The position numbers were made by a program, and so were the translations under genes. This document shows positions 4,112-58,129 of a stretch of DNA of 64,000 bases, one piece after another. The notes under the pieces are model-generated. The model had not been told where the DNA came from and ran no database searches. It worked only from the letters and a program-made list of their open reading frames with translations. Every line of letters starts with the position of its first letter. Position 1 is the stretch's first letter. The stretch comes from Octopus vulgaris. Taxonomy: Eukaryota. The stretch lies in the NCBI GenBank assembly GCA_951406725.2, contig OX597823.1, positions 39,556,001 through 39,620,000 of the forward strand, written 5' to 3'.

Positions 4112-4193
<82 letters not shown>

Positions 4194-4225
4194 TTTATTT
4201 TAAGCAGCAGAAAATTCAACAAAAT

Positions 4226-4263
4226 CTGTTACTCTGAGTTTCTCGTTGCCGTTCATCAGACAG
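4226..4263 (-). ncRNA. Type I hammerhead ribozyme motif (inverted copy)
   Basis: Minus strand: ctgt CTGATGA a-cg-gcaa-cg-a GAA actc-a-gagt A acag. Confidence 0.7.
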
Positions 4264-5225
4264 TTTTTGCTAGAATGGAACCGATATATCAATTCAATCT
4301 AGACTCTTACAAACGCTACACCTTTAAAAAGAAATGGACTTGTTTGATTGGCCCTTTAGAAAAAAACGGTCAATCTTCGAGCGATAAACAAAAAGGTCAA
4401 AAATATATGTATATATATATATAAAAAAAAACTTATAAAAAATTATAAAATCCGAGGAAAAAACCTTACATTGAATAAAATACATATTGACGTTAATGAA
4501 GAAAGTATAAATTAATTCATAGGAATTAAACCTGTTATAAATATTACACTGCAATACATATTTTTATTAAAATATGCATATATATATCAACATACACAAA
4601 AGGATGCGCGCAAACGCCATACATATACAGACGTATGAATATAAATCTAAATATACACATAAATGCATGTGTACATATATTCACGCAAACCATCTCGCAC
4701 GCAAGTTAAAAATCATGTATGTAGCGATTCTCATATACTGAGTAAGGGGGGGGGCGAAAGAAAGGAAGAGAGAGAAAAAGGAACGAAGGAGGGGTGGGGA
4801 AAAAAACGAAATAAGAAAAAATTATGTATACAAGCTGTGTAACGGCATTATTGGCATATATGGAGACAAGTATACAAACACAATTTCGAATGGATACATA
4901 CACATACAGTCGTGTATATGTGTGCTTAAGCACAAACATACTCTCACTTACACATACACAGATACGCATGCTTACAAATACATATCCTCGGCTATACACA
5001 TACTTACATCAACATTCTAATTTTGACAACATTGCTTTTTTTAAAAAAACATTGCTTTTTTTAAAAAGAATGGGCGCATTAATAAAAATATATACGAAAG
5101 ACATATAAAATAAAATATAACACCTTTTTCTGAAGGGCCAATCAAACAAGTCCATTTCTTTTTAAAGGTGTAGCGTTTGTAAGAGTCTAGATTGAATTGA
5201 TATATCGGTTCCATTCTAGCAAAAG

Positions 5226-5263
5226 CTGTCTGATGAACGGCAACGAGAAACTCAGAGTAACAG
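5226..5263 (+). ncRNA. Type I hammerhead ribozyme motif
   Basis: Stem I ctgt/acag, extendable by tagcaaaa/ttttgttg. CTGATGA at 5230-5236, minimal stem II cg/cg with GCAA loop, GAA, stem III ACTC-A-GAGT, GUA cleavage triplet ending at 5259. Confidence 0.7.
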
Positions 5264-5365
5264 ATTTTGTTGAATTTTCTGCTGCTTAAAATAAAGCATA
5301 TTACTCTACCACTGGTATTTGAGTACTCTTTTTTTCACCTTGTTTCACATTTATGTGTTTACTCC

Positions 5366-5457
<92 letters not shown>

Positions 5458-7867: not shown

Positions 7868-8815
7868 ACAGAGTGCGATAGGTAAATTGTCACCATTTTA
7901 TAGTTTTAATTTCGTGCATGTGCATTATTTTTTTATTCTTGATTTTGTCGACTAAACAGCATAGTAGGGTCAGTTGAGCACCGTCTGTGAGAAAAACAGC
8001 ACCATGACGCAATTCACTCTGTCAGAAGTTTGGAATCGACATGCTGTACTGCTTAGCATTCACGCCAGAAGCTCCAATGCGAACATTTCAAAGTGTTTGG
8101 GTATCAATCTGAAGACAGTGCAAAGGATTCGGAAACAGTTGGATGAGTCTAATGGTGATTATGAAGGTACGGCAGCTCGGAAAACTCAATCTGATCGTTC
8201 TGATAAGAAAAGAACTCCTAAATTTGTTGGTGAGATCCAGGTCATGATTCACAACGATCCCTCCAAGTCAATCAAGTCCATCTCCAGGGAGTGCATGAAG
8301 ACATTTGGTATTCCTCATACAAGATGAGAAAGGGCCAATTTTTATCCCAAGCCATCAAGGACAAGAGAATAGACCGCATTACGAAGCTTTGGAACAAACT
8401 CAAGCATCCCCTCCAATCGAACGTTATTTAGTTTTTCTCAGACGAGAAAAATTTCTGCTAGGATCAGATGATGAACACACAGAACAACCGCTGACTTGCC
8501 GTGTCCCCAAAACATGTACTGAGAGTAATAAAAATCGAACATCCAGTCAACACCATGGTGTTTGGAGTGATCACTAGTGATGGCGACGTTATGCCTCCAA
8601 TTCTCTTCCACACGGAGGCCGATATCAAGTATCTGGAGGATGTAGTGCTGCCATGGGTCAAGAGGGTAGCTGCTGGAAGACCCTATGTCTAGAAACAGGA
8701 CTCTGCACCATGTCACACAAGCAGAAGTACCCGTCATGGCTGTCAGACAATTTCTGCCATCACATCACCCCTAACACCCGACCCCCCAACTCCCCAGGCT
8801 GAAAACCCTTGATTA
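7868..8815 (+). mobile_element. Tc1/mariner superfamily transposon relic, maT (DD37D)-like, 3' truncated
   Basis: HTH-like ORF 7974..8327, then FSDEKNF, VFGVITSDGDVMPP, WVKRVAAGRPYV-x-KQDSAPCH and a decayed SPDxNPLD at about 8790-8815. Starts TA-CAGAGTG. Confidence 0.8.
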
Positions 8816-9645
8816 ATATCAATAATCAACATGGAAACCCAAGAAACTCACGATTTACGACAAACAATCCCATACTTCCTGAATGTCTCAATAAACAGAA
8901 GATGGGAAGAAGAGAGAACCTTTAGACAGCGAAATAAGTACAAAGAACATGAACCATCCCCTCACCTACGTGGAAAACAGAATACCAGAAACAGAAAATG
9001 GAAACACAATAATACAATTCCTTTTTTAGGGAGAAAATACCACAATCGCGAACCAAACCCGACGCAACAGAAAGTTTTAATGAGTACACAGCATATATAA
9101 GCCCAAAGATCATAAATTTGTCAAATAGAAACCTCAAAAAGAATTAATCTCCTATTGAAAGGTTTCAAATTTACACCGACACCCACCCCTAATCTCACTG
9201 AACTAAAAGCTGATATGGAGCATTCCAACCACCACCTCCAGCTTATAGAAATCTTCGGTAATAAGGATATAAATGACGTATCAATTATCAGAAATAAATC
9301 CCACTTCATCTACTACAAGGGGAATGACAAACATTTAGACTCATGTATAGACACACGTTCGAAATATCCCATAAGAACCTGTAAATGCAAACAAAACCTT
9401 CGTGAAGAAGAAAAGGAACCCTTACTAACACGGAAGGATGACAATTCAGTCATCCTAAAAGAAGTCGATAAGAGAGGGGTGAAAGTAATCATGGACAAAG
9501 ACTACTATAAAAATGAAATATTGGAAATTCTAACAGACCAAACGTACTACAAGCGAAAACCAAGACATCCGGAAAAAGTAATAGTGAATAAAATCAAAAT
9601 ATTAATTAATGAATACCAAGATTCCTTCATAGACGAGGAGAAAGA
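8815..9645 (+). mobile_element. Penelope-like retroelement, N-terminal RT region relic
   Basis: KIINLS..KGFKFTPTP and NLREEEKEPLLTRKDDNSVILKEVDKRGVKVIMDKDYY (like NLSxEERxALxxLxxDxxIIIKPADKGGAVVIMDKxDY). Confidence 0.8.
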
Positions 9646-9939: not shown

Positions 9940-10421
9940 TTGGGTCATTCCATAAATAATGCGGTTTTTTCAATTGCATGAAATAGACTTCGAAGGGAGG
10001 CGGGATAAATTACCTGCATCAACTTGCTATAAAAGCAGGGAGTAATTTTACCTTGTGCTAATTCTTAATACAAGTTTTGAAGAATGTAAGCAGTTATTTT
10101 TTCAAAGCTCTAATGGAAATGACAAAGGAACATATTCGGCATATTTTGCCCCATCTGATTATCATTTATTTAGCGGTCTTCAAAATCATTTGGAAGGAAA
10201 AAATATGAATTCTGTAGACGAGGTCAGAACAGTACTGGGATAGTATTTTTCATCACGGACAAGTGAATTTTGGAAGAGGGACCTTGCATGTCAACAAGAT
10301 AAATGGAAGAGCATTGTAGAAAATGAAGGAGAGTATATTTTGGATTAAAAAAGAACTTTGTTTATCTTAATTTTGTAAAACAAAAGAAGTATAAAAACCG
10401 TATTTTTATGGGATAACTCAA
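9940..10421 (+). mobile_element. Internally deleted mariner (MITE-like)
   Basis: TA-flanked imperfect TIRs ttgggtcattccataaa / tttatgggataactcaa. The transposase start MEMTKEHIRHIL abuts APSDYHLFSGLQNHL. Confidence 0.85.
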
Positions 10422-10584: not shown

Positions 10585-10845
10585 ATAATTGTTAAACAGG
10601 ATATCAAACATTAAGGCAAGGCAAATATATCAAGTCATATACAATATATTTTAGGAAGGAATTCAAAATCTTACAGCTATTTCTAGGATATCGCCGAGTA
10701 TGGGATATTCCATCATCAGAGACAAATTGGGGAAAGATATGGAAAATGAGAATGGTTTATATCAATAAGATGACAACATAGAGAAAGGGAGTAAAAGAAT
10801 AAGTAGATGGAAAGAGAGAAAGAGTAAACCCCCATACTTTGTTCA
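10585..10845 (-). mobile_element. Short microsatellite-flanked element carrying a hammerhead ribozyme
   Basis: About 260 bp of non-microsatellite sequence between (TA)n and (TACA)n, containing the motif at 10668-10723. Confidence 0.55.
10668..10723 (-). ncRNA. Type I hammerhead ribozyme motif
   Basis: Minus strand: gtct CTGATGA tggaatatc-ccatactcggc-gatatccta GAA ATAGCTGT A agat. Stem II is 9 bp with one mismatch. Confidence 0.75.
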
Positions 10846-12496: not shown

Positions 12497-12688
12497 GTGG
12501 AGGCGCAATGGCCCAGTGGTTAGGGCAGCGGACTCGCGGTCGGAGGATCGCAGTTTCGATTCCCAGACCGGGCGTTGTGTGTGTTTATTGAGCGAAAACA
12601 CCTAAAGCTCCACGAGGCTCCGGCAGGAGGTGGTGGCGATCCCTGCTGTACTCTTTCGCCACAACTTTCTTTCACTCTTTCTTCTGTT
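12497..12688 (+). mobile_element. SINE family A head and body, joined to a PLE
   Basis: GTGGAGGCGCAATGGCCCAGTGG..GTTTCGATTCC head. Confidence 0.85.
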
Positions 12689-15490
12689 GCTAAAAAAGTA
12701 CTAAGAAATATTAATAATGAAATTAGGGAAATTACTGGGCTTCAACAATGGAATAACAGTTTTACTGTATTAGTTTGGTTTAAGAATATCGGGAATAAGA
12801 ATAAGGCTAAATTAATCCACTTTGATATTATAGACGTTTATCCCTCTGTATCTAGATCGCTGCTTGATAAAGCTATTGAATTTGCTAAATTATATGTTGA
12901 TATTGACCCTATAAACCTAGATTTTATCAGGCATGCGAGGAAAACACTATTGTTTAGTAAAGGATTAGCATGGGTAAAAAAGTCGCATAGTGACAAACTA
13001 AATGATGTATCTATGGGGTCATATGATAGTGCTGATGTCTTTGATCTTGTGGGTTTATTTATATTAAACACATTGAGATATAGATACCCGGCTCGCTCAT
13101 GGCAATGGCCTATACCGTGATGACGGTTTAGGTATTTCTCTTGATAGAGTTAGGAAGCAACTACTTTCTATCCTCAATCAAACTACAGTGGCTACTAATC
13201 TCTGTATTGTTGATTATTTAGATGTTTCCCTAAATTTAAACTCGTACGAGGGGCGTTCAATAAGTAATGCCCCTGACCCACTTCCCATAGCAGTAGAGCA
13301 ACGAAACTTGGCACAGTTATTAGTCTTTTTCTACATAGGAACCACCCAGAGTTACGCATTTCTCCCATCGTTTGATGCGGCTCTGGAGACCGTTTTTGTA
13401 GAAGAACCCAGCTTGGTCCTCCAACCTCAACGTGACTTCAGAAATCAAGGCTGCATCATCTGGGAAATGCTTTCCTTTCAAAAACAACTTCATGATTGGG
13501 AAGAGGTGAAAATCAGAGGGTACAAGGTCAGGAAAGTAGGGGGGATGGGGAGGAGTTCATAGCCATACGCCTGTGCTTCTGATCTGGCGACAAGCGAGTT
13601 GTGGACCGGAGAGTTGTCCTGCAGGAGGAGGATGCCTTTGTTGATCTTGCCCCGCCTCTTAATTTTGATAACTTCTCTTAATTTCCTCAAAAGTGAAGCA
13701 TAATAGGCTCCTGCAATTGTGGTACCCTTTGCCAGGAAATCTGTCATCACTACTCCGTCCTGGTCCCAGAAGACTGTGAGCATGACCTTGCCAGCGGAGG
13801 GCTGCACCCTTGCCTTCTTTGGAGGGGGTTAGTCACGGTGCTTCCACTGCATTGACTGGACTTTGGTCTCTGGATCATCGTGATGGACCCAGGTTTCATC
13901 CTGTGTAATCAGTCTTTTGAAAAATTTTGACTCATCTTCTTGGCACATCTCCAAATTCACCCTCGAGCACTCGACGCGTTCTTGCTTCTAGAAAGGCGTG
14001 AGCAACCTGGAAATCCATCTGGCAGACACCTTTTGCATATGCAAATGGTCATGAATGATAGTTTCCACAGACCCGGTACTAATCTTGACCTCATGGGCTA
14101 TTTGGCGAATAATTATGCGTCGATCTTCCAAAATGGCAGCCTCAACTTGACGGACAGATGCCTCATCAATGGCAGAAGGGGGCGACCAGATCTGGGAGCT
14201 GTTTCCACAGAGTTCCGACCATGTTTGAATTCACGATGCCAGCGTTTTACAAGGTCATATGATGGGGCATCATCACCATAAGTTACTTTCATTTCATCAA
14301 AAGTCTCCCGTGGTGTGCGTCCTTTCAAATACAAAAACTGGATCACTGCTCGACACTCAACAGGCTCCATTTCACACTTGACTCGGTTCAAACACCTGTA
14401 AATCAGAAACCACAATTAATTCAGAGCTGTAATTTGCTACTTACTCTATAGAGATATAAATAATTGCACATGCAAAATTTCAGCTAGATCAAACAACTGC
14501 AAGTGGGTCAGAGGCATTACTTATTGAACGTCCCTCGTATAAACCTTTCCATAAACCCAATGAGAAACTCGCACATATACATAAACAGACGCGTCACTCT
14601 CCTGTAATATTTAAAAACCCGGTAGTTATTATTAGTGACAGGGTGTCTAATCTCTCTTCTTCCAAAGAAATTTTCGAGTAAGTTGCCCCGTATTATAACA
14701 AGGCCCTAGCCAATAGTGACTTCAAAGATAAATTAATATATAGTCCCTCTAATAATAAGCAAAATATTAATAATAGATCTAGTGGCATCAAAGATAAAGT
14801 AGTACTTAACCACTCTAGTATTAATCAGGATAATAAGAAACCTAAACATAGGCCAAGGAAAATTATTTTCTTCGCCCCTCCCTTAATATAAAATCTAAAA
14901 GATTCCTGTTACTCTTAGACAAACACTTTCCAGCTACTCACATGTACAGAAAAATATTCAATAGGCGTTCTGTGAAATTATCATATAACTGCTGCCCCAA
15001 TATGAAGAGTATTATTACACGTGGTCAACACCAAGAATCTGAATCCAGCTGCAACTGTCGCGACCCAGGGTCCTGTGAACTTGACCAACGATATAAACTA
15101 AATCTATCATATATGAGGCAGAAATTACTGTAACCCTAAATAATAATACAACTGATAAGAAGAACTATATTGGATTATGGGAAGGTGAATTTTAAAATCG
15201 CTATGTCAATCACATAGCCTCCTTCCGACATAGGGACAAAAGTAAAGCTTACTACGTTGGTTACCTACGTGTGGACTTTGAAAGATAACGAAAGACAGCA
15301 TGTAATTAAATGGAAAGTAATTGAGAAAGCCACACCTTATGTGAATGGATCGAATAAATGTAGACTTTGTTTGGCTGAACGAGCGCAGATCCTGTTCAGA
15401 TCTATGATTCTTAAGCCTCTTAAACTCCAGGTCAGAAATTTTCAGTGGTTGCATGCATATGTATAAATATATTTTGGAGAATTGGAAAAC
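12689..15490 (+). mobile_element. Penelope-like retroelement (RT plus C-terminal GIY-YIG endonuclease, Naiad-like), 5' truncated and split by a mariner
   Basis: FDIIDVYPSV, DVSMGSYDSADVFDLVGL, GLYRDDGL, VDYLDVSLNL|YKPFHKPN, KIFNRRSVKLSYNCCPNM, CNCRDPGSC, NYIGLWEGEF-x-NRYVNH, KWKVIEKATPYVNGSNKCRLCLAE. Several frameshifts. The Naiad assignment is inference. Confidence 0.9.
13247..14537 (-). mobile_element. Full-length (1291 bp) mariner DD34D transposon, irritans-like; transposase pseudogene at about 13320-14370
   Basis: TIRs cgaggggcgttcaataagtaatgcc / ggcattacttattgaacgtccctcg with TA duplication at 13245 and 14538. Motifs WISRLL, TQDETWVHH, KVMLTVFWD, LQDNSPVH, PDLVPSDFHLF, with stops and frameshifts. 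Confidence 0.95.
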
Positions 15491-15762: not shown

Positions 15763-15990
15763 CTTTATTGACCACAAGGGGCTAAACATAGAGGGGACAA
15801 ATAAGGACAGACAAAGGGATTAAGTCGATTACAACGACCCCAGTGCGAAACTGGTACTTTATTTATCGACCCCGAAAGGATGAAAGGCAAAGTCGACCTC
15901 GGCGGAATTCGAACTCAGAACGTAGCGGCAGACGAAATAACGCTAAGCATTTCACCCGACGTGCTAACGATTCTGCCAGCTCGCCGCCTT
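15758..15990 (-). mobile_element. SINE family B, full length
   Basis: Minus strand GGCGGCGAGCTGGCAGAA...GAGTTCGAATTCC..gactttgcctttcatcctttcggggtcgataaa. Homologous to 31279. Confidence 0.9.
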
Positions 15991-16610
15991 ACACACATAT
16001 GTATGTGTGTATGTGTGTGTGTGTGTATGTGTGTGTGTGTGTATGTGTGCGTGTGTATATATTGTGTGCTTGTTAATTTTGTCTATTTCTCTTTATGAAG
16101 GTTTCTGTTTTCCACTTTGTTCATTTGTAAAGAAATACATAGTTGTGCCTGTGAATAAAGGCGTTTAAATACATACACATACATGTGTGCGCGTGCGCAC
16201 GCGCGTTATTTATGGAGATGCATGTGATTCTGTGTATGTGTAGAGAGACTCTTGTGTGTGTGAATTCTGCTTGTATGTTTTATTTGTGACGAGGATGGCT
16301 GAGCTAGATTTAGTATTTTTAGAAAGTGTTTGTTTAGGCTCTATTTTTAATCTCTGCTTTTCCCATGTGATATCTACCACGCATCTTTACTTACAAACAC
16401 AAATGTGCTCTTCTCTCATACATATTATCATAAAATACGAACACGCACATTGAACAACAATATGCTCGCATACATATGTATATGTGTGTGAGTGTGTTTG
16501 TGCCCGTGTATTTATCTAGCTATATAGACACACACACACACACACATATAGTTAATCCAAACAAGAAAGCACAAAAAAACACAACAACGCGAGGACGTGG
16601 AACAAATATA

Positions 16611-31125: not shown

Positions 31126-31278
31126 ATCTTGTGCTTTTGTATATCAACGATAATATTAACTAATACCTTGCGGTGTTTGTTCCAGCCCTTTGCTGGAACA
31201 AACACATACATACATACATACATACATACATACATACATGCATGCATGCATACATGCATACATACATACATACATATA

Positions 31279-31515
31279 TGGCGGCGAGCTGGCAGAAACG
31301 TTAGCAGGCCGGGTGAAATGCGTAGCCGTATTTTGTCTGCCGTTACGTTCTGAGTTCAAATTCCACCGATGTCGATTTTGCCTTTCGTCCTTTCAGGGGC
31401 GATGAAATAAGTACCAGTTACGCACTGGGGTCGATGTAATCGACTTAATTCCTTGGTCTGTCCTTGTTTGTTCCCTCTATGTTATGTTTAGCCCCTTGTT
31501 GGCAGTAAAGAAATA
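31279..31515 (+). mobile_element. SINE family B, full length
   Basis: GGCGGCGAGCTGGCAGAAACG (A box) ... GAGTTCAAATTCC (B box), central domain and tail ending taaagaaata. Confidence 0.9.
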
Positions 31516-39519: not shown

Positions 39520-40563
39520 TTGGGTTGGCAACTAAGTCCCCGCCGTTTTTTTTTTTAATTTGGAATTAATTGCGTTTTTAAACTTTGGAATTTATTTTTT
39601 TCGAGAATTCTATTTTTGAATCATTTTGGAATCTATTTTGCTTTTTTTCTCTAGTTAATTTTAGTTAATTTTTGTTTATTAAAATGGAATGTCAAGTTAA
39701 AAAAATCGAGCATTTTCGACACCTTCTTTTTGCTTTTAATCAAGATTCTAAGGCCGCAAAAGCTGCTCACGACATTTGTGATGTGTATGGAGAGGGTGCA
39801 ATAGCTGAAAGAACCGCTCGTGATTGGTATGCCAAGTTCAAAACTGGAAATTTTGCCCTCGAAGACGCACCTCATTCTGGCTGTCCAGTTGAGTTCGATA
39901 AAGAGCGATTAAACCAGCTTTTGCACGAAAATTCTTGTCAAACGACGAAGAAACTGGCAGAGAAAATGGAATGCTCCCACACTGCTATAGAGAAGTATCT
40001 TCACTTGATGGGAAAGGTTCAGAAGTATGGAACATGGGTTCCGCATACTTTAAGTGACAACAACAAAAATCAACAAGCCACAATCTCCGCTGGTTTGCTT
40101 GCTCGTCAACGGTCAACGCGGAACTCTATGTTCAATAGATGGAACGACTCAACACGGCTATTCCAGAGAAAAGACCTCATAGGCAGCATGGAGTTCTTCT
40201 GCTACACGACAACGCCCGCCATCATATCACCAATATGACCAAGGAAGCCATTCAAACGCATGGCTGGGAAGTGCTGCCACACCCACCGTACTCTCCTGAT
40301 TTGGCACCAACTGATTTCCACCTCTTTCTATCTCTTTCAAATGCTATGCGCGGAGTTTTCGTTCAATACTAATGCAGAATTGAGAGCTTGGTTGGATCAA
40401 TTTTTCGAGTCGAAATCAGATGATTTCTATCAACAAGGTATTGAAAATCTTACTGAACGTTGGGAAGAAGTTGTAAACAACAAGGATGAATACATTATTG
40501 ATTAATTAGTTGTTAGTTTTTATTAAATCTTTTAAAAAATTTAAATAAAAAAAAAAAACGGCA
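39520..40563 (+). mobile_element. Mariner transposon with an internal deletion; transposase pseudogene at 39684-40505
   Basis: TA-ttgggttggcaactaagt TIR; MECQVKKIEHFRHLL, WVPHTL, LLHDNARHH, HPPYSPDLAPTDFHLF. The first catalytic Asp region is missing. Confidence 0.92.
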
Positions 40564-44509: not shown

Positions 44510-46419
44510 TGTTTAACTCTTCAAATCCTGAAAACTGACTGCAGTCATCCATAGCCCCAGAACCAGAAAAATCATCAGGGTCATCAATACTGTTCGAAGT
44601 GTCACAATCTTCAAACAGAACGTCATCTTCTGTGCCATCTATTGCATTACTGATGCCACATTTTTAAAAAGGTTTTACTACTACTTCAGTTTTCACAGCG
44701 TTCCATGATCTCAAGACCCACTCGCACACTCGCACACCTGAGCAATTATTAGCCTTTTCAAACGACCTGTTGGTGTTAGGTCATGGTCCTTGGCTCTCAT
44801 CCCCTGATTCCACTCGTCTTTCATAACTGCCTTAAAAAGCTTGTTGATTGATACGTCCAGTGGTTGTAATTGGCTTGTTAAACCACCAAGGATCACTGCC
44901 ACTTTCGTTTTCATTTTCTGCACCCTTTCTTTAATAACCATTGTTTTGTGGGCACGAAACTGGTCCCACACAAGAAGGGATGGTTTTTTTAAGGAGGCCA
45001 CCAGAACGCCTTGTAGAGATCTTATCTAGCCATAGCTTCATTCCTTCCTCATCTATCCACTCCTTTAGGTGGAGGTGAACAAAAGTTCCACGTGGAATTT
45101 TCTCTTTTGGTAAAGTTTTTCTTTTGAAAATAAGCAACGGTGGCAGTTTTGTTCCATCAGTGCAACACGATAGTACTGCAGTATAATGGGTTTTCTCATG
45201 TCCAGATGTCTTTACACTTACGGTTTTGGACACTTTAACATCCACTGTTCTAGTTGATACCACATCACACGTTAGTGACACCCCATCCATGTTTCCGATC
45301 TGATCCAGTTCGTAGTCAGTCTCTTTTCTTGCACTGATTATGAACCTGTGAAATTAGATTATTTTGTTATCATAATCTTCAGGCATATTTTGTGCCATTC
45401 TTGGTTCTATTCTCCTTGCTAGTCCGTGCCTCTTCATAAATCTGTAACACCAGCTTGATGTGCCACGAAAATCATCCAGACCTCGTGCTGCTGCCCTCAG
45501 TTTTGATTCATTAATAATAATTTTTATTGATACTGCAAGGCCCGAATTTCCCTCTGCAACTATCCACTCCTTCATCTCTTGCTCCAGTTCTGACCACCTA
45601 GCTGCAGGTTACGTTTAAGTCTTGATGTAGACTTCAACAAATCCTCAACAGTAGCGGATCATTTTTGAAGTTGGCGGTGCTCCAAATGCCACCCTGCAGC
45701 TCTGTTGCCATATTTATTCACTTGTAGCTTGTAACCGATTGTGTAAGAGTATCTTCTGCTTGAGATTACCATAATAAGGTTTGTGCTAAAAATTTTAAAG
45801 CTTCTGAAGTTACGGATCACTCCTAACGTCAGCAGGCCCAGGTTTGAACTGGTTTAAGTCCATGGCTTTCAGAGATCAAGGAGGAAGCTATGTTGCTGTC
45901 TGAACACAACGCATTTCATCACAGAGAGTAAGTGATGACTGAACGCAACATGTTTCATGTCAGAAAGTGAATAAGTGATTACGATAGTATTGTTATTAAT
46001 ATTTGCTTATAAATCCTTTTAACATACCACAGTTTTACTTCTTTCCTCATTTAATAATGTTCCCTTAAAGTCAGGTTGTTTGAAGAGAGTAAAAAAATAC
46101 CAGCAATATAGACACACAGGTAAAAATATCACCCGTCAGTTGCCTCGTCTAACATACACTGCCTATATGGGAATGAATTCTTGTGATTTCAAAATTTTTT
46201 ATGATATTATACTTTGGTTTATTTACTACTTTAACAAAGTATAACTTATACACTTCACTGAGCGGTCATATATAGGGGTTCAGATTTCTGTCTAGCATAG
46301 ATAATTTTTCTCTGGGGATATGCCTGTGAAAACTGAAACCTTCGGCCTCCAGGACGTATGGTAGATTTTCGAGATTAATTTTAGGAAAAAAGGAGCATCT
46401 TCAACGCTAGGAAATACGG
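44510..46419 (-). mobile_element. pogo-superfamily transposon relic (POGK-like transposase, CENP-B HTH plus DDE_1); pseudogene at about 44510-45772
   Basis: WCYRFMKRHGL, IGNMD, KTSGHEKTHYTAVLSCCTDGTKLPPLLIFKRK, LLVWDQFRAH, GGLTSQLQPLDVSINK, KCGISNAIDGTEDD. Frameshifted. TIR-like ccgtatttcc at 46410-46419 on the minus strand. Confidence 0.9.
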
Positions 46420-56810: not shown

Positions 56811-58129
56811 CGAGGAGAAGTAAAAATTATCCACATTTTTACCATAACATCCGCACTTTCACCAAACCTTTATTATTGTCCCATTGCCTTCTGTGCATGC
56901 GTTCTTATAGTTGGTATTATTGTGGTCACGTGATCGAAGTTTGAGCCCGATCGTGCTTTTTTTTCTTTCTGGTTTTTATAAGCATGGCCGCTCCACTAGC
57001 AATATGCACCAAAGAAGAACAAAGAGCAGTGATCAGATTTCTCTTGTCGGTAGGTGTGTCAGGTGCTGAAATTAATCGGAGGCTTTTAGAACAATACGGG
57101 CACAATGCACTACCGCGTAGAAGTGTGTATGAGTAGATCGAGAAGTTTAAAAGTGGCCGGACAAGCCTGACACATGGAGAGGGAGCAAGACACACGTCAA
57201 TTTCCAGCACTGGCCAGAAGATTCAGCAAGCTCGAGAGATGGTAATGGTAAACCGGCGAGTTATCATCGTAGAGGTAGCTCATTCTCTGCAGATTTGTCA
57301 TGGTTCTGCCTATCAAATCATCCACATTGAGCTCGTCTTCCATAAAGTCTGTGCAAGATGGGTGCCAAGAGAGCTTACTGTAGAGCACACACGCAAACGT
57401 CATAAGATCTGCCCACGTTTACTCGATCGCTGCAACAATGAGGGCGAGAAATTTTTGAGCAGAATAGTCACACATGCTACGTGGGTTCATCATTATGAGG
57501 CAAAATCCAAAAGACAGAGTATGGAGTGGAAACATTCTGGCTCACCAGCGCCGAACAAATTTAAGACTCATTCCTCCTCGGGAAAGGTGGTGCTAACCCT
57601 GTTTTGGGACTCAAAAGGACCTGTACTGGAAGACTACCTTGGAAAATGGGTGTACGATTAACAGTGCAAGATACAGTGCTTTGCTGGCCAACAAACTGAA
57701 TCTAGCAATTCGCACCAAACGCCGAAACCTATTGTCGAAGAAAGTTTTGTTGTTGCATAACAATGCACGCCCACAGACGGCCGCCCAAACCGTTGAAACC
57801 ATAAACCAATTGGGTTTTAAGATGCTGGAAGACCCTGTTTACAGCCCAGATCTCGACCCTTCCGACTATCATATCTTTGGATCCATCAAAGATGGTTTAC
57901 GAGATCGTCGATTTCCTACGGATGAAGATGTGAAGGAAACGGTGCATAAATGGTTGCACGCCCAACAGAAAACTTTCTTCTTGGAGGGAATACTCAAGCT
58001 TGTGGACCGCTGGACCAAGTACATCGAAAAGGAATGAGAGATATAGAAAGATGATGTACTTGTTTATCCTCCGCTTTTTGTAAATACATTGAAAAAGCAA
58101 GCGTGCGTATAATTTTTGACTCTCCCTCG
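56811..58129 (+). mobile_element. Full-length (1319 bp) mariner, irritans-like; transposase pseudogene at 56984-58037
   Basis: TA-flanked TIRs cgaggagaagtaaaaattat / ataatttttgactctccctcg; EEQRAVIRFL, ARWVPREL, KVVLTLFWD, LLHNNARP, YSPDLDPSDYHIF. It has a stop, frameshifts and two lost catalytic Asp residues. Confidence 0.95.

Follow-up and report, generated by a model that had tools for sequence, protein, structure and literature searches.

A probable single Penelope-like insertion with paired, inverted hammerhead motifs in a TA microsatellite of Octopus vulgaris

When the same hammerhead ribozyme motif stands on both strands of one short element, is it kept there so that each strand has a working ribozyme, or is the second copy a by-product of the way in which the element was inserted? 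We asked this question for a locus within a 64,000-nucleotide (nt) stretch of Octopus vulgaris DNA (GenBank assembly GCA_951406725.2, contig OX597823.1, positions 39,556,001 to 39,620,000; this whole stretch is termed the window herein, and all coordinates refer to it). A first-pass annotation, made from the letters of the window, had described the locus as a unit with long inverted arms, one ribozyme on each strand and an inverted pseudo-LTR of the kind known from Penelope-like elements (PLEs).

Architecture of the element and its surroundings

The element occupies positions 4193 to 5367. Its arms, located at 4193-4364 (minus strand) and 5125-5296 (plus strand), are ungapped reverse complements that are identical at 170 of 172 positions, with mismatches at 4357/5132 and 4264/5225; the near-perfect arms described earlier are therefore real, although the left one had been drawn one base too long, to 4365 instead of 4364 (172 nt). 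Each arm carries, facing outward and as had been described, the same hammerhead core (plus strand 5230-5259, minus strand 4259-4230) followed by AATAAA (5290-5295 on the plus strand and, in the mirror arm, 4199-4194 on the minus strand), the right-hand AATAAA lying within the 3' strand of a hairpin (5 bp) whose end is close to the tail-less end considered below. Between the arms lie the expected 760 nt of AT-rich, non-coding DNA (4365-5124, 29.9% GC), termed the inside herein; the stop-to-stop frames of at least 90 amino acids that overlap it are of low complexity in appearance, as judged by eye. On the minus strand, the inside contains 335 T and 198 A, with a similar excess in its two halves (174/106 and 161/92). 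A tandem duplication of ~20 bp lies within the inside at 5029-5068, and other copies show deletions of 4 to 5 bases at 5060. Low-complexity matches aside, the top-scoring matches listed for the window contained no further copy of the arm or of the inside.

Two features had been absent from the first-pass annotation, namely a tail and a (TA)n target. The tail (5298-5367, plus strand) is 70 nt long, lies beyond the right arm only and is, like the inside, T-rich on its own sense strand. The element sits between a TA run of 68 nt on the left (4125-4192, with a short (CATA)n run before it) and one of 62 nt on the right (5368-5429, followed by (TGTA)n). The left arm has no tail and abuts (TA)n directly, and a target-site duplication is not readable within (TA)n. 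Of the limits proposed for the unit, 4193 and 5368, the start stands; the last non-TA base is 5367, and T5368 belongs equally to (TA)n. At the head-to-head (5'-to-5') inversion junction, 5124/5125, there is at most a 3-nt match (ACC) with the sequence preceding the left arm.

No PLE reverse transcriptase (RT) or GIY-YIG frame was found in 4193-5367 when the frames were read by eye, and the copy under study is not an autonomous element. Likewise, protein searches and scans of the contig collection revealed no RT or GIY-YIG gene tied to the end of the element. A short frame starts from an ATG within the ribozyme core (5233-5319, plus strand) and is broken by a TAA at 5287-5289; we infer that it may correspond to exon 1 of the parent element. 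Its peptide (with X at the stops) gave 0 matches to longer proteins, and two other protein matches were rejected, as they were to tandem-repeat proteins and yielded no pairwise alignment. The family contigs introduced below have another letter at the break in 60 to 83% of depth; no conclusion is drawn from the break, because the peptide has no partner and the letter also lies in the small hairpin. A loose end behind position 5122 was considered as natural upstream sequence and rejected, being a single contig (run X9) that resembles, by eye, the transposon end at ~9941-9965.

The window is AT-rich and laden with microsatellites, and it contains many transposon remnants. At 10660-10730 (minus strand, core start 10719) lies another, unrelated hammerhead-like motif, whose stem II is long and whose loop III is palindromic; it is probably the end of another PLE family, and its lowest-energy fold differs from a hammerhead. 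A broken N-terminal part of a PLE-like RT (8813-9640, plus strand) shows 48% identity to mussel protein P0002 and ends at a TA run; it has no Pfam match, shows no link to the element and contains what we take to be a DKG-like motif. Decayed RT-like frames at 12524-13562 and 14852-15133 (plus strand) have no relevant Pfam match, and their motifs presumably resemble those of Naiad PLEs. DDE transposase remnants (7968-8327, 39669-40238 and 57137-58037 on the plus strand and 44931-45353 on the minus strand; Pfam HTH_23, HTH_48, Transposase_1, DDE_3 and DDE_1) and mariner-like pieces (~9941-10421 and 13490-14415, by eye only) were also observed, as was a 278-nt inverted pair, 15785-16062 and 31206-31483, which is 81% complementary and 15 kb apart and probably represents two copies of a dispersed repeat.

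Structure and predicted folding of the hammerhead motif

The right-arm motif (5217-5272, plus strand) is a type I hammerhead motif with the core CUGAUGA...GAAA...UA, of which the first segment lies at 5230-5236 and GAAA at 5247-5250, and with a predicted cut after A5259. Stem I consists of 4 bp (5226-5229/5260-5263), a 1x1 mismatch and 8 more pairs out to 5217/5272. Stem II is as small as first reported, with only 2 bp (5238-5239/5244-5245, C-G and G-C) closed by a GCAA loop, with one A on either side of the stem. The stem III segment (5250-5258) is a near-palindrome; its folding gave no monomer hairpin and a self-duplex (dimer) of -7.4 kcal/mol. The left-arm motif (4217-4272, minus strand, core 4259-4230, predicted cut 4230/4229) is the mirror of 5217-5272. 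By chance, 7 of 5,000 dinucleotide shuffles of the arm contained the core together with stem I and the first pair of stem III. An Rfam search of the locus at gathering and E-value thresholds returned no hammerhead match, and local fold stability was not higher than that of shuffles (z -0.2 to -1.3).

This motif shares with the minimal hammerheads of PLEs (Cervera and de la Pena 2014, PMC4209133) the type I arrangement, the CUGANGAH, GAAA and UH core segments, the extra base after A9, a short stem I and a small, palindromic or near-palindromic stem III. The G10.1-C11.1 pair and the long helix II of the published consensus are absent here, stem II starting instead with C-G, and its 2 bp compare with a shortest stem of 3 bp among the 44 rows of Fig. 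S3 compared (PMC4209133); an extra A also precedes GAAA at our locus, as in one AGAAA of that figure. In the family contigs, position 5246 is G in 17 to 37% of depth. Dual minimal hammerheads on opposite strands have been reported in PLEs at distances of 100 to 700 bp (PMC4209133); here the two cores are 971 bp apart. Of the variable places listed for the family, which exclude 24 further rows, the 38-nt ribozyme contains 1, the remaining 134 nt of the arm 4 and the inside (760 nt) 30; we do not read these counts as a sign of selection on the ribozyme. The ribozyme and tail motif sequences had no match in the literature searched or in one supplement file of PMC8557442; Lunse et al., on dimer-cleaving PLE hammerheads, and supplement 1 of PMC4209133 lie outside that search and may already cover the stem II variant. 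An exact-pattern scan of metagenome, viral and genome contigs gave 0 matches to the tail motif. The sole match of the ribozyme motif scan, 24 of 25 letters at 2441-2465 of a bacterial-looking contig (L001), had neither GAAA nor further stems and was judged to be due to chance.

It had been proposed that a transcript of either strand could self-cleave and that a read-through transcript could form a long double-stranded RNA (dsRNA) stem. The stem is borne out by folding prediction, with 172 or 170 arm-arm pairs in whole-element RNA of either strand. Self-cleavage found no support: all five ribozyme pairs tested have a probability of 0.0000 in RNA spanning both arms, where pairing with the antisense arm covers the ribozyme and is predicted to keep its stems from forming. 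For RNAs starting inside, the predicted probability of the tested ribozyme pairs was at most 0.038, and for a 58-nt monomer the predicted share of the hammerhead fold was 6e-5 to 1e-4. PLE hammerheads are described as having a dimer design, which the stem III self-duplex matches, and low activity in vitro (PMC4209133, PMC6765202); as the two ribozymes at the locus lie on opposite strands, they provide no cis dimer, the reported need of such motifs (PMC4209133). The inverted arms are thus predicted to pair over the ribozyme and to silence self-cleavage at the locus. With this predicted masking and a 70-nt tail on one side only, the locus gives no support to the idea of a symmetric unit whose strands each carry a functional ribozyme.

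Family abundance, head-to-head joins and two kinds of 3' end

A repeat annotation of Octopus vulgaris lists Penelope families, and the term ribozyme is absent from the passages searched (PMC13282606). All or part of the stretch occurs in 20 of the 24 runs listed (10 studies, four organism labels), and we sampled the family by placing contigs from four of these 24 runs (X1, X3, X7 and X9) on the element at 85% likeness. Matching contigs numbered 5,816, 7,810, 1,982 and 691, respectively, and covered all 30 bins in each run; their likeness to the element was spread from above 99% to under 90%, with 1,053 of the 5,816 X1 contigs being at least 99% alike to the copy under study. Coverage of all bins together with this wide range points to a dispersed and diverged family that includes the inside. 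Arm, inside and tail are all high-copy, although summed contig depth is not a copy number, and the tail, at 10 to 45 times the coverage of the inside, is among the deepest-covered parts. The first-pass annotation had left open whether the whole unit is multicopy or the inside is captured local DNA; capture is refuted by the high-copy family sequence found in all four runs. The number of A>G places was 8 in X9 versus 13, 14 and 12 in the other three runs, and contigs cannot settle editing either way.

In other copies the inside runs on into the left arm, as seen in each of the four runs. Pieces 2, 10 and 25, among the 32 listed of 16,453, cross the left boundary, with 31 letters within the inside for piece 25 and 30 for pieces 2 and 10 (one below the threshold). 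The bin at this boundary (4353-4392) has a depth above the inside median in three of four runs, and the A-run 4360-4366, which spans the boundary, shows a one-base deletion in 15, 19, 3 and 1 contigs. At the right junction, none of the 32 pieces listed of 16,453 crosses 5124/5125, and the junction bin (5113-5152) is shallower than 16, 14, 17 and 17 of the 17 inside bins (bin 4393-4432, a repeat, was left out). Part of this low depth is artefactual, as a contig that fits both arms is assigned to one of them, and a 4-base deletion at 5155 is assigned to the right arm in 6, 2, 4 and 1 contigs, so some other copies could share the 5124/5125 junction. The continuity of the inside with the left arm, together with the T-richness of the inside on the minus strand and of the tail on its own sense strand, makes the main copy the minus strand from 5124 to 4193, and the right arm is its inverted, 5'-truncated partner. 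Inside depth does not fall toward 5124 and rises in three of four runs (rho 0.55 to 0.59, p 0.01 to 0.02; X1, rho 0.18), which counts against a plain gradient of 5' truncation and fits a complete 1-kb derivative and a truncated 3' untranslated region (UTR) alike.

Head-to-head joins recur in the family. All of the 15 joints listed of 86 (each from X1 or X3, with short sides of 22 to 37 letters) run from the left arm (4222-4275) straight into the right arm or tail (5231-5301). They omit the inside, differ from one another in their breakpoints and have low depths of 38 to 189. Finding the same inverted join with varying breakpoints in other copies suggests that each insertion probably generates its own inversion. 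The left breakpoints of 8 of these 15 joints fall at 4266-4275, mirrored at 5214-5223, the outer 5' edge of stem I, and depth steps up 3.6- to 12-fold at ~5217; this step may reflect either an RNA start or better conservation of the ribozyme among subfamilies. No joint among the 15 listed of 86 starts at the predicted cut (5260 or 4229), and one lies a base off, at 4230. A single joint going back from 5245 to 5204 was seen.

At the other end of the copies, tail-less ends at 5301 followed by (AT)n were found in 40, 30, 13 and 3 contigs of X1, X3, X7 and X9, respectively, beside the deeply covered tail, indicating two kinds of 3' end, tail-less and tailed. At 5289-5290, contigs that share AATAAA and the tail diverge upstream (45 contigs in X1, 39 and 40 in X3 and 16 in X7), which we read from these sequences as several subfamilies with one common tail. 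Both arms of the locus carry the minority letter at 4302/5187, where the other letter makes up 72 to 90% of depth, and again at 5288/4201, where it makes up 60 to 83%. Since these minority alleles are common to both arms, a single source or event is favored over two.

A single insertion and its alternatives

We consider it very probable that the locus arose when the enzyme of a Penelope-like retrotransposon made a single insertion into a TA microsatellite, leaving a main copy of 932 bases (minus strand, 5124 to 4193) joined head to head to a shorter, inverted copy of its 3' end (5125 to 5367), which retains the 70-base tail. The inverted pseudo-LTR signature proposed earlier is thereby supported: an inverted truncated copy, a one-sided tail and a bias for (TA)n or microsatellite targets have been described for PLEs (PMC8557442, PMC3846280). 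In those accounts (PMC8557442 Fig. 2, PMC3846280), the EN+ PLEs (Penelope/Poseidon, Neptune, Nematis and Hydra) show the same truncated copy joined at the 5' ends, a tail at one end, a hammerhead in the repeated end and a (TA)n target without readable duplication. The locus differs from them in that it contains no open reading frame (ORF), and none is linked to it, in a tail of 70 nt versus 30 to 40 bp, and in having 865 nt or more of non-coding DNA ahead of the ribozyme core. Because no RT or GIY-YIG gene is linked, the assignment stands on architecture and ribozyme and carries no named clade; by analogy, the insertion appears to work like that of a PLE, here with a non-coding element. For the main copy we hold two readings to be about equally probable, namely that it is a shortened 3' UTR from a coding element or that it is a non-coding derivative, complete at 1 kb.

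A plausible course of events is offered by the Poseidon element of the anole Anolis carolinensis (PAc; PMC11167929), whose protein cleaves and extends both strands at AT-rich DNA in vitro, whose reverse transcription has two internal start sites that define the tail, and whose ribozyme cuts only with the protein, the cut not being needed for insertion. PAc and our locus share an ATG beside or inside the ribozyme core, two 3' ends and AT-rich targets; PAc is a full coding element assayed in vitro, whereas our locus is known from its sequence alone. By this analogy (PMC11167929), the enzyme would nick both strands of AT-rich DNA and reverse transcription would start at two internal sites of the RNA. 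The tail-less end (~5297, with its mirror at 4193) would come from one of these sites and the tailed end (5367) from the second. Priming on each strand of the TA tract would yield two cDNAs, which would stop after 932 and 243 nt and be joined at their 5' ends, and the paired ribozymes would have arisen as a side effect, the pseudo-LTR having been copied twice. For the inversion mechanism, the literature offers self-priming on an antisense template as an alternative (PMC3846280). Animal non-LTR retrozymes (PMC7229834; bioRxiv 10.64898/2026.07.22.740005) are also non-coding, contain a type I hammerhead and have a proposed origin from PLE ends, but they form head-to-tail tandems of ~300-bp monomers, in contrast to the inverted pair and the unit of ~1 kb seen here, and no retrozyme-like tandem copies were found in the window.

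We weighed three other origins. The locus could be one instance of a fixed non-autonomous unit of arm, inside, arm and tail that is amplified whole and keeps a ribozyme on each strand for use. The inside is indeed high-copy throughout and its depth does not fall toward 5124, and in each of the four runs the right arm received contigs with the 5155 deletion; yet an amplified unit fits poorly with a right-junction bin that is among the shallowest, with 0 of the 32 pieces listed of 16,453 crossing 5124/5125, with 15 listed joints of 86 that all have different breakpoints and omit the inside, and with the predicted masking of the ribozyme in whole-unit RNA, and we regard this origin as improbable. 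We judge it more improbable still that two copies of the same family were inserted independently, back to back, in one TA tract. The abundance of the family, its preference for (TA)n and the two differences between the arms speak for such a history, but the copies meet 5' to 5' with no TA or host DNA between them, they share the minority alleles at 4302/5187 and 5288/4201, and the same join recurs elsewhere; moreover, an arm identity of 98.8% is high for a family in which only 1,053 of 5,816 X1 contigs reach 99% likeness.

An origin as a MITE, or as a deleted DNA transposon with long terminal inverted repeats whose hammerhead look is due to chance, is scarcely credible. It would account for the long inverted arms, the TA target and the missing Rfam match, but the right arm stops ~70 nt short of the end, so that the inverted repeats do not stand at both termini, and the motif, present in only 7 of 5,000 shuffles, lies close to the end of the repeated arm, immediately ahead of AATAAA. 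The variable joints, which speak against fixed ends, together with the one-sided tail largely refute this origin.

As a single Penelope-like insertion, the locus is ordinary: its layout is that of a textbook PLE, and pairs of hammerheads on opposite strands have been in print since 2014. Its family offers more. The ribozyme variant probes the minimal size of stem II in a natural PLE hammerhead, and the many junctions supplied by an abundant family bear on how inverted copies form, by two-strand priming or by self-priming, which is still unsettled. One tentative and rather unlikely extension is that the hammerhead of this abundant family, with its 2-bp stem II that lacks G10.1-C11.1 and is shorter than in any PLE example compared, still cuts as a dimer or with the protein of the element, and that the outer 5' edge of the ribozyme is where the short copies begin because it is the start of the element RNA, which would make these copies run-off cDNAs. 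If this were true, the head-to-head copies would be a genome-wide source of perfect dsRNA.
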